A stretch of 61,500 nucleotides of DNA from an uncultured Acidimicrobiia bacterium (lineage in GTDB: Bacteria; Actinomycetota; Acidimicrobiia; Spongiisociales; UBA4744): positions 1 through 61,500 of the forward strand of contig CAYLHS010000003.1 in the NCBI GenBank assembly GCA_964383535.1. The letters run 5' to 3'. Within the stretch, counting starts at the first letter, position 1. Every line of letters begins with the position of its first letter. The notes under the pieces are model-generated. The model had not been told where the DNA came from and did no database searches. It saw nothing but the letters and a program-made list of their open reading frames with translations. Below, piece after piece: positions 30,838 through 32,015 of this stretch. The translations under genes and the position numbers were made by a program.

Positions 30838-31511
30838 CGTGCCACCTGCGCGACGACCACGTACGGACGACCAGACGTACCCGACCTGAGCGCGCCTTCG
30901 ATCTCCGCGTGGTTCCGTCCGTCGACGACCGAAGACTCCCACCCTTCGACCTCGAAGCGGGCTGCGATACCCCCGGGCCAGCCGAGGCTCGCCGAACGAT
31001 TGTCGATGACGATCACGGTCAATCGATCGAGATCCATACGGGCAGCGACTGCGATCGCCTCGTGATTGCTACCTTCGTCGAGTTCCCCATCTCCGATCAG
31101 GCAGAACACGCGAGAATCCGTTCTTCCGGCTGCTCTGAGCCCGAGTGCCACTCCGACTGCGATCGGTAGTCCGTGCCCCAGCGATCCGGACGAGACCTCG
31201 ACGCCGGGAATCAGCATCCGATCCGGATGCAGACCCAGCGCAGAGTCGAACCCGCCGAATGAAGGGAGCCACTCCACGGGGATGAAGCCCTTGGCGGCGA
31301 GCACTGCATAGTACGCCTTTGGACCGTGCCCCTTCGAGAGGAGGAATCGATCACGGTTCGGATCGTCGGGATGGTTCGGGTCGATGCGCAGCACTTTGTC
31401 GTAGAGCACCCACAGCACGTCCAGTGTCGACGACGCCGCAGGAGCATGCTTCCGGTCACCGGACTGCAGGGTGACGAGATCCATCAGATCTGCGTAGGTA
31501 GTGGTTGTCAT
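30834..31511 (-). CDS. Transketolase-like N-terminal (ThDP-binding) subunit
   Basis: DRFLLSKGHG, LHPD, SSGSLGHG, GDGELDEGSNHE...IDN ThDP motif. Confidence 0.9.
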   Translation of the reverse strand: MTTTTYADLMDLVTLQSGDRKHAPAASSTLDVLWVLYDKVLRIDPNHPDDPNRDRFLLSKGHGPKAYYAVLAAKGFIPVEWLPSFGGFDSALGLHPDRMLIPGVEVSSGSLGHGLPIAVGVALGLRAAGRTDSRVFCLIGDGELDEGSNHEAIAVAARMDLDRLTVIVIDNRSASLGWPGGIAARFEVEGWESSVVDGRNHAEIEGALRSGTSGRPYVVVAQVAR

Positions 31512-31518
31512 GGCGAGG

Positions 31519-31549
31519 AAGCTACAACTTCAAGTGTGGTTGAAGTCAA
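31519..31549 (-). promoter_or_regulatory. SoxR box within a 19-bp-spacer promoter
   Basis: Minus strand TTGACT-19 bp-TAGCTT; inverted repeat ACTTCAA-N6-TTGAAGT at 31527-31546. Confidence 0.8.
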
Positions 31550-31565
31550 ATGATATGCTCTCACA

Positions 31566-32015
31566 ATGAACGACCTCACGATCGGAGAGCTCGCGAATCG
31601 GGTTGGCGTTGCCACGTCGGCCATCCGGTTCTGGGAATCGGAGGGTCTCATTGCCTCGTACAGGACGGAGGGGAACCAGCGCCGGTTCGGGAGATCCACG
31701 ATTCGACGTGTCTCGCTGATCCGTGCCGCCCAGGAGGCGGGACTCACCCTTTCCGAGGTCAGCGAGGCACTCGAAACGCTCCCCCACGACAAGACGGCCA
31801 CCAAGCGCGACTGGCAGCGGCTGTCCCGGTCCTGGAGGGGTCGCATCGACGAGCGGATCGCCGAACTCGAGGCCCTGAGAGACCAGCTCACGGACTGCAT
31901 CGGTTGTGGCTGTCTCTCGCTGCGTAGCTGTGGCATCTTCAACCCTTCGGACCGGGCAGCCGGGCTGGGAGCAGGTCCCCGCTATCTGATGGGTGACGAA
32001 CGCGAGGCCGGGTGA
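31566..32015 (+). CDS. soxR: Redox-sensitive transcriptional activator SoxR
   Basis: MerR HTH LTIGELANRVGVATSAIRFWE, GNQRRF, [2Fe-2S] motif CIGCGCLSLRSC. Confidence 0.95.
   Translation: MNDLTIGELANRVGVATSAIRFWESEGLIASYRTEGNQRRFGRSTIRRVSLIRAAQEAGLTLSEVSEALETLPHDKTATKRDWQRLSRSWRGRIDERIAELEALRDQLTDCIGCGCLSLRSCGIFNPSDRAAGLGAGPRYLMGDEREAG

Follow-up and report, generated by a model that had tools for sequence, protein, structure and literature searches.

What does a SoxR redox sensor control when the gene beside it encodes a transketolase-like enzyme? The question is raised by a locus in a 61.5-kb stretch of DNA from an uncultured salt-marsh Acidimicrobiia bacterium (contig CAYLHS010000003.1; the whole stretch is referred to here as the window, and all coordinates are those of the window), where a soxR gene faces away from two coupled genes whose products resemble the two parts of a transketolase, an enzyme dependent on thiamine diphosphate (ThDP). 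To our knowledge, the characterised targets of SoxR do not include a ThDP enzyme. Based on the sequences of the window and of related loci, we propose that the three genes form a self-contained redox-stress cassette, in which SoxR would control a heteromeric ThDP enzyme of the kind represented by FasB and FasC (Fas2 and Fas3) of Rhodococcus fascians. We give this reading a probability of roughly 0.7.

The regulator and its predicted site in the window

The soxR gene (31566..32015, forward strand) encodes a MerR-family redox sensor of 149 amino acids. On the reverse strand, divergent from it, lies the gene for a TktN-like ThDP (PP-domain) subunit of the FasB/Fas2 type (30834..31511; 225 amino acids; PF00456; predicted to be leaderless), followed by the gene for a TktC-like subunit of the FasC/Fas3 type, which comprises the Pyr and C-terminal domains (29938..30837, reverse strand; 299 amino acids; PF02779, Transket_pyr). 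We refer to these genes as tktN and tktC and to their products as the N- and C-subunits. The start codons of soxR and tktN are 54 bp apart, and the ATG of tktC (30837-30835) shares bases with the TGA of tktN (30836-30834) in an ATGA overlap.

The regulator scores 197.1 bits against the SoxR equivalog model TIGR01950, for which the cutoff is 116.9, and the next families, ZntR, CueR and MerR, fall far under their own cutoffs. PF13411, PF00376 and PF09278 all match, corresponding to the MerR helix-turn-helix and the MerR-DNA-bind/dimerisation helix. The CX2CXCX5C cluster-binding motif, CIGCGCLSLRSC, occupies residues 111-122 with the spacing C-IG-C-G-C-LSLRS-C, and it is invariant in 12 aligned orthologues from various lineages. 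On this profile and motif evidence, the regulator is a bona fide SoxR.

The shared intergenic region contains a recognisable target for such a regulator. On the reverse strand, reading toward tktN, a -35 element TTGACT (31544..31549) is separated by 19 bp (31543..31525) from a -10 element TAGCTT (31519..31524), and the seven nucleotides CCTCGCC intervene between the -10 element and the tktN ATG at 31511. A spacer of 19 bp is what is expected of a MerR-type promoter. A sigma-70 promoter scan of the window returned nothing at this position because the scan admits spacers of 16-18 bp only. The putative SoxR box (31527..31546) is a perfect 7-bp inverted repeat, ACTTCAA-N6-TTGAAGT, which covers the last three bases of the -35 element and most of the spacer. 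At up to two mismatches to this dyad, the window contains no other site, with 0.06 expected from shuffled sequences; four further matches at three mismatches are at chance level.

The same dyad may serve the other transcript. A putative soxR -10 element, TATGCT (31554..31559, forward strand), ends 6 nt before the soxR ATG, and many actinobacterial loci likewise show a hexamer resembling TANNNT at 6-7 nt upstream of the soxR start. The corresponding -35 element would fall within the SoxR box, so soxR is probably autoregulated through the shared 54-bp region. The initial annotation had described soxR as divergent from two coupled transketolase-like genes, with a TTGACT-19 bp-TAGCTT promoter, the dyad, and an ATG 7 nt after the -10 element. 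The gene arrangement, ATGA overlap included, can be read directly from the sequence; every promoter element is present, exact to the base; and the identity assigned to soxR holds on the TIGR01950 score, the MerR domains and the cysteine motif.

Conservation of the cassette and published precedent

Scanning one genome per species identified 319 sequences related to the N-subunit; the loci of the best 80, at 60-99% identity, were analysed. By their record titles, these derive from Acidimicrobiia, Dehalococcoidia, Anaerolinea, Egibacteraceae, Nocardioidaceae, Pseudonocardiaceae (many of them Lentzea), Actinoplanes, Streptomyces, Nocardiopsis and one 'Eisenbacteria' metagenome-assembled genome (MAG). 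One locus, from an uncultured Acidimicrobiia MAG (L001), is 99% identical to the window, and near-identical DNA was also found in salt-marsh metagenomes. The C-subunit gene directly follows tktN in most of the 80 loci, a SoxR homologue lies within the flanks of 59, and in 56 it is directly divergent from tktN. Clustering of all open reading frames (ORFs) in these loci yielded no additional conserved neighbour apart from lineage-specific synteny. Judged by gene content, the conserved unit is thus soxR, the box and the two enzyme genes, placed in genomic surroundings that differ by lineage.

The promoter is conserved together with the genes. A SoxR box, counted as at least 11 of 14 matches to ACYTCAA-N6-TTGARGT within 150 nt upstream of tktN, occurs at 77 of the 80 loci, compared with a background of 17 such matches per 626,205 positions in the same loci. 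Among these 77 boxes, 69 are accompanied by a -35 element reading TTGACC or TTGACT and 73 by a -10 element with A at position 2 and T at position 6 at the fixed 19-bp spacing; an ATG or GTG that is in frame and open with TktN follows the -10 element by 6-7 nt in 74. The two arms of the dyad remain complementary at five of the seven outer positions in 65-75 of the 77 boxes and at a sixth position in 49, and they can change together, as where ACTTGAA...TTCAAGT stands in place of ACTTCAA...TTGAAGT. At 18 loci, from Streptomyces, Nocardiopsis, Pseudonocardia and others, the box and its geometry are kept with no soxR in the fetched flanks, and for this reason we regard the box as part of the enzyme operon, beyond any role in soxR autoregulation. 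Direct control of the TktN/TktC pair by SoxR, which the initial annotation had put forward, is strongly supported by this pattern of sequence conservation.

A start codon only 6-7 nt past the -10 element predicts a leaderless tktN mRNA. In RNA-seq contigs from Actinosynnema, the enzyme pair is covered at shallow depth and the soxR side is well covered, and contigs from several runs end on or close to the predicted starts. In most actinobacterial loci both soxR and tktN appear to be leaderless. In the Dehalococcoidia loci (L003, L005-L007 and L012), soxR is preceded by a leader of ~30 nt and a GGAGG ribosome-binding site, and tktN still shows the leaderless geometry.

Individual loci depart from the common arrangement in several ways. 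The Actinokineospora loci carry two SoxR boxes each. In L036 and L047 both boxes stand in tandem upstream of tktN (~3930-3985), and in L030 (3370 and 3955) and L043 (3382 and 3964) one lies at tktN and the other at soxR; in L030 a gene for RNA 2'-phosphotransferase (Tpt1/KptA) is situated between the two. The locus L085, on the Streptomyces clavuligerus megaplasmid (3859-4705), has a perfect SoxR box and a -10 element with an ATG 6 nt further on, near 3893. The public start of its TktN-like protein is at 4034, about 140 nt downstream of that ATG, and may be mis-called. In L023 (2024-5580), an Anaerolinea MAG locus, genes for an ABC-2 transporter (ATPase and permease) precede the pair on the same strand and there is no SoxR box, which suggests a different regulatory context.

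The association is also apparent from the side of the regulator. A scan of metagenome contigs with an alignment of SoxR sequences gave 80 soxR loci (52-72% identity), a sample biased toward close relatives of the SoxR of the window, of which 63 had at least 400 nt upstream and were informative. A TktN-like gene is the divergent neighbour in 14 of these 63 (22%), the largest single class. Further divergent partners are Rieske-domain proteins (7), questin-oxidase-like proteins (6), glyoxalase/VOC proteins (5), short-chain dehydrogenases (5) and luciferase-domain proteins (4), and the remainder include MFS transporters, a metallo-beta-lactamase-fold protein and a zinc-dependent alcohol dehydrogenase-type quinone oxidoreductase. 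These classes fit the theme of SoxR outside enteric bacteria, namely enzymes for redox-active aromatics. A survey of the gene neighbourhoods of soxR and of this transketolase-like subfamily, suggested along with the original proposal, thus finds the pair to be the commonest divergent partner among close SoxR relatives. Nearly all of the metagenomic loci (L093-L172) have a box just upstream of soxR as well as a divergent partner gene; the luciferase-domain partners among them are small proteins.

Elements of this regulatory link have been reported before. In a table footnote, Naseer et al. (2014; PMC4146615) list SAV_1623 of Streptomyces avermitilis, a 'putative transketolase', as having a conserved SoxR site, and Liu et al. 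(2021; PMC8867992) found by electrophoretic mobility shift assay (EMSA) that His6-SoxR bound the sav_1623 promoter, the gene being filed there under primary metabolism. The link is less novel than was implied when it was first drawn from the window, as both a SoxR site and EMSA binding at sav_1623 were already in print (PMC4146615; PMC8867992). The supplements of PMC4146615 do not include sav_1623 among their entries; the Streptomyces SoxR sites that they give, CCTCAA-N6-TTGAGG and CTTAAA-N6-TTGAAG, are of the type that the window dyad matches. A Streptomyces-seeded protein search and cluster look-ups returned the family from many Streptomyces, and S. avermitilis did not surface among them. 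Orthologues of TktN of 235 amino acids are widespread in the genus under the annotation 'transketolase' or 'Transketolase A subunit', and the Streptomyces loci examined carry the box, that on the S. clavuligerus megaplasmid being perfect. The arrangement differs from that of the window in that soxR is not adjacent to the pair in Streptomyces. In the full-text literature on SoxR and transketolase we did not find a description of the cross-phylum conservation, the divergent cassette or the identity of the enzyme family. In principle, the regulatory link thus has a precedent, and the cross-phylum cassette and its connection to Fas appear to be undescribed.

With E. coli soxR-soxS the locus shares the regulator family (TIGR01950 and the CX2CXCX5C motif), the divergence of regulator and target, a dyad in a 19-bp spacer between the -35 and -10 elements, and a regulator promoter that overlaps the site. 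The target here, however, is an enzyme operon, whereas in E. coli it is a second transcription factor; both transcripts here appear to be leaderless, unlike those of the E. coli system; and the half-site is ACTTCAA rather than the ACCTCAA of enteric bacteria and Streptomyces. In acting directly on few effectors, SoxR of the window resembles that of Pseudomonas aeruginosa and of Streptomyces coelicolor, with its six-gene regulon (PMC4146615), and the form of the box and the layout match. The characterised effectors of such non-enteric regulons are reductases, monooxygenases and transporters, and the S. coelicolor SoxR regulon does not contain a ThDP enzyme (PMC4146615).

The enzyme pair and its relation to FasB and FasC

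The two subunits belong to the transketolase superfamily, although at a considerable distance from its canonical members. The N-subunit matches PF00456 (Transketolase_N) over positions 18-230 of 334. Its best match by sequence in the PDB is a split transketolase, 6yak, at 139 bits; the C-subunit is more divergent, at 63 bits to the split transketolase and 60 bits to DXS. All NCBIfam transketolase and DXS models score far under their cutoffs: the best transketolase model, the full-length NF004559, gives the N-subunit 152 bits and the C-subunit 59, compared with a cutoff of 488, so that even the sum falls short, and the DXS model TIGR00204 gives 52.7 compared with 466. An AlphaFold2 model of the N-subunit (pLDDT 85, pTM 0.86) has the transketolase PP-domain fold, and its top 50 fold matches in the PDB are all transketolases (TM-scores 0.67-0.80; best fold match the split-transketolase chain 6yak, at 0.75), with no DXS among those 50.

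The N-subunit is short, as had been pointed out from the window, where it has 225 residues. The possibility that this reflects a mis-called start was rejected, since an upstream stop codon blocks a longer ORF and the shortness is family-wide: N-subunits range from 220 to 254 residues (median 230) and C-subunits from 289 to 332 (median 295). Canonical split transketolases encoded on plasmids are longer (269-284 plus 311-322 residues) and lie beside sugar or pentose-phosphate genes. The split transketolase of Carboxydothermus hydrogenoformans (6YAK/6YAJ) is the best match of solved structure for both subunits and is divided at the same alpha/beta split point. Relative to 6YAK, the N-subunit is about 42 residues shorter at its C-terminus, where the His261 loop is gone, and is shorter at its N-terminus as well.

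A census of active-site residues, made by aligning 82 N-subunits and 75 C-subunits with E. coli TktA and Dxs, separates what is kept from what is lost. His26, His66, His100, Asp155 and Asn185 are kept in 82/82 N-subunits, and Glu411 and His473 in 75/75 C-subunits, so numbered after the E. coli enzyme; the ThDP/Mg motif (GDG...N) and the cofactor-activating glutamate, E. coli Glu411, are present. The N-subunit ends near TktA residue 245 and thus lacks the His261 loop. His461 is replaced by Gly or Ala in all 75 C-subunits (Gly in TktC of the window), and Asp469 and Arg520 are variable. In transketolase these four are substrate-channel residues that serve sugar-phosphate binding and stereo-selection. 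Anchoring the alignment on the invariant histidine of the THQ motif gives the same losses, whereas canonical split transketolases keep these residues; the 6YAJ chain has the His at -12, the Asp at -4 and the Arg520 equivalent that the SoxR-linked family does not. The arginines with which DXS binds glyceraldehyde 3-phosphate (GAP), E. coli R420 and R478, are likewise not conserved. DXS is another member of the ThDP superfamily, and the resemblance of the C-subunit to it is about as close as that to split transketolase, but DXS is a single fused chain of ~620 residues and the N-subunit here is transketolase-like.

Taken at the level of conserved residues, the pair is a minimal transketolase-like ThDP enzyme in which the cofactor chemistry is intact and the acceptor and phosphate pocket has been rebuilt. 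The loss of the sugar-phosphate- and GAP-binding residues implies that it is not an enzyme of the pentose phosphate or methylerythritol phosphate (MEP) pathway, and its reaction partner is most likely a different, probably non-phosphorylated compound. The suggestion, made with the initial annotation, that the enzyme works outside the pentose phosphate pathway agrees with the loss of His261, His461, Asp469 and Arg520.

The closest named relatives of the pair are found elsewhere. A protein search of a plasmid collection returned a 'ferredoxin' gene of R. fascians pFiD188, which is Fas2 and is 58% identical to the entire N-subunit; outside the family, the next matches reached ~43%. Fas2 consists of a 4Fe-4S-type ferredoxin domain fused to a TktN-like domain, and TktN of the window is 57.6% identical to its residues 71-294. 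Fas3, encoded by the following gene, is 44% identical to the C-subunit over 297 residues. For comparison, identity is 30% to TktA and 26% to Dxs. In neighbour-joining trees of each subunit, constructed without support values, the four pairs from fas clusters form a subclade nested among actinomycete SoxR-linked sequences, and canonical split transketolases, TktA and Dxs fall outside the clade on a long branch. The phylogeny thus places the pair apart from bona fide Tkt and DXS, which also fits a role outside the pentose phosphate pathway. By identity and tree position, the pair in the window is a member of the FasB/FasC clade, and the fas proteins appear to have branched off from within the SoxR-linked family.

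The fas-cluster members are L084 (R. fascians pFiD188, 5791-7650), L086, L088 and L089. They share with the pair of the window the protein clade and the short N-subunit, but they reside in cytokinin clusters with genes for a P450, an isopentenyltransferase (IPT), CKX, LOG and methyltransferases, and no SoxR box was found in the fas operon. Conversely, no ferredoxin domain, IPT, CKX or P450 was found near the pair in the window or in the 80 loci. Fusion to a ferredoxin is a rare feature, found in three cases, each of them in a fas-type cytokinin cluster and directly downstream of a P450 gene. In L086, also a fas-type cluster, the pair is unfused and directly precedes the isopentenyltransferase gene, with the P450 gene at a distance. 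Creason et al. (2014; PMC4092121) described the function of FasB/FasC as unknown and speculated that the two proteins are DXS-like.

Possible reactions and the meaning of the cassette

We propose the following sequence of events. By analogy with E. coli soxS, SoxR with its [2Fe-2S] cluster would occupy the dyad in both redox states. Oxidation of the cluster by redox-active compounds would lead SoxR to untwist the over-long spacer, turning on the tktN promoter. The resulting leaderless bicistronic mRNA would be translated into TktN and TktC, coupled through the ATGA overlap, and the two subunits would assemble as a heteromeric ThDP enzyme that is expected to keep the capacity to bind ThDP and to form the carbanion/enamine.

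The reaction itself can be proposed only tentatively. The reading that we prefer, although it is less likely than not, is that the ThDP enamine is used oxidatively, as an NAD(P)H-independent donor of two electrons to ferredoxin or to acceptors of the quinone or phenazine type. The only functional hint is the ferredoxin fusion beside a P450 in the fas daughter clade, which favours the ThDP enamine as a source of electrons. Such a role would suit a SoxR regulon, the other members of which are mostly redox enzymes. A wider proposal combines three parts: that the pair is a new type of ThDP redox enzyme, which oxidises a ketose or 2-oxo donor at a transketolase-type active site and passes two electrons to ferredoxin or directly to quinones or phenazines; that it is the commonest direct SoxR effector in Actinomycetota and Chloroflexota; and that it is the ancestor of FasB/FasC, recruited to power the Fas P450. 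That all three hold jointly is doubtful.

Several observations weigh against the proposed SoxR-controlled FasB/FasC-type cassette or against parts of it. The box is absent from L023 and L034 and degenerate in L024. One Actinosynnema RNA-seq contig begins ~40 nt upstream of the predicted leaderless start. In S. avermitilis, the sav_1623 transcript was higher in a soxR deletion under one condition (PMC8867992), which fits repression by reduced SoxR and does not demonstrate activation, and the orthology of sav_1623 to the pair in the window is presumed. The C-subunit alignment is uncertain near Arg358, which is probably retained as Arg2 of that subunit. Finally, the ferredoxin fusions occur only in the fas subclade, in which His100 is replaced by Ala or Val in 4/4 members and His66 in 2/4; with these catalytic histidines lost, function inferred from the fas proteins may not transfer to the SoxR-linked pair.

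The idea raised with the initial annotation was that of a carboligase, in which the ThDP acyl anion adds to quinones, nitroso compounds or phenazine-like molecules, by a Stetter-type or hydroxamate-forming reaction, and so inactivates them. The conversion of nitrosoarenes to hydroxamic acids is a known activity of transketolase, and the carboligase idea would account for an enzyme with its catalytic histidine set and ThDP machinery intact and its sugar-phosphate pocket gone; it also accords with those other divergent partners of close SoxR relatives that act on aromatic or quinone compounds (questin-oxidase-like, Rieske and glyoxalase/VOC proteins, short-chain dehydrogenases and the quinone oxidoreductase). 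We nevertheless consider it unlikely, as no transporter or tailoring gene is conserved beside the pair and the ferredoxin fusion in the sister fas clade favours electron transfer over adduct formation. A biosynthetic, DXS-like carboligase could instead feed a metabolite pool under redox stress, for example the MEP pathway and its stress metabolite MEcPP, with FasB/FasC supplying prenyl donors for cytokinin synthesis. The near-equal scores of the C-subunit against DXS and split transketolase (60 and 63 bits), its 26% identity to E. coli Dxs, the unfused pair directly before the isopentenyltransferase gene in L086, far from the P450, and the speculation of Creason et al. (PMC4092121) point in this direction. 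The R420 and R478 positions are not conserved, however, the TIGR00204 score is 52.7 against a cutoff of 466, and the N-subunit is clearly of transketolase type in both sequence and fold, which leaves a DXS-like role quite improbable.

An ordinary transketolase isozyme, induced for pentose recycling and NADPH supply under oxidative stress, would agree with the public annotation 'transketolase' and with the PP-domain fold of the N-subunit, and raising the activity of the pentose phosphate pathway is a well-known answer of E. coli to oxidative stress. With His261, His461, Asp469 and Arg520 missing or variable, scores far under the NCBIfam transketolase cutoffs, and a long branch separating the pair from canonical split transketolases, which are longer and found in sugar and pentose-phosphate contexts, this explanation is very unlikely. 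The box might also serve soxR autoregulation only, the adjacency of the transketolase-like pair being incidental: it overlaps the predicted soxR promoter, and almost all metagenomic soxR genes have an upstream box whatever their neighbour. Yet the conserved geometry of -35 element, 19-bp spacer, -10 element and start codon points to tktN, and in the 18 loci that lack soxR in the fetched flanks the box still stands upstream of tktN in the same register, so that we attach hardly any weight to this account. The reading that we favour remains a SoxR-controlled cassette for a FasB/FasC-type ThDP enzyme.

Other features of the window lie around the cassette. At 29367-29898 on the forward strand, two ORFs overlap in different frames and run toward the end of tktC. 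A GNAT acetyltransferase domain is partially matched by the second of them, and together they may represent a frameshifted gene or a MAG assembly error. A 500-bp gap between soxR and an amidase gene (32016-32516) contains G+C-rich runs that resemble proline codons, and neither a convincing ORF nor an Rfam family or tRNA was found in it; Rfam and tRNA scans of the whole window were empty. At 2-3.5 kb from soxR, on the reverse strand, are a DUF4388 gene (34071-35030) and a gene of the NADPH-dependent FMN-reductase family (35089-35835). Flavin reductases are SoxR targets in S. coelicolor, and the FMN reductase gene was considered as a second target here; it was rejected, as no box is present nearby.

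Outside enteric bacteria, the accepted targets of SoxR are limited to a few pumps, oxygenases and reductases that deal with redox-active antibiotics. A ThDP enzyme as the commonest divergent partner of close SoxR relatives (22%) bears on that picture, and so does the retention of the promoter, the box and the leaderless-type geometry in two phyla, Actinomycetota and Chloroflexota. The enzyme falls in the same clade as FasB and FasC of the R. fascians fas virulence operon. The pair is carried by culturable organisms, including Actinosynnema, Lentzea, S. clavuligerus (on pSCL4) and probably S. avermitilis. If its reaction is identified, it would represent a new chemical strategy in bacterial defence against redox cyclers and would provide a hypothesis for the role of FasB/FasC.

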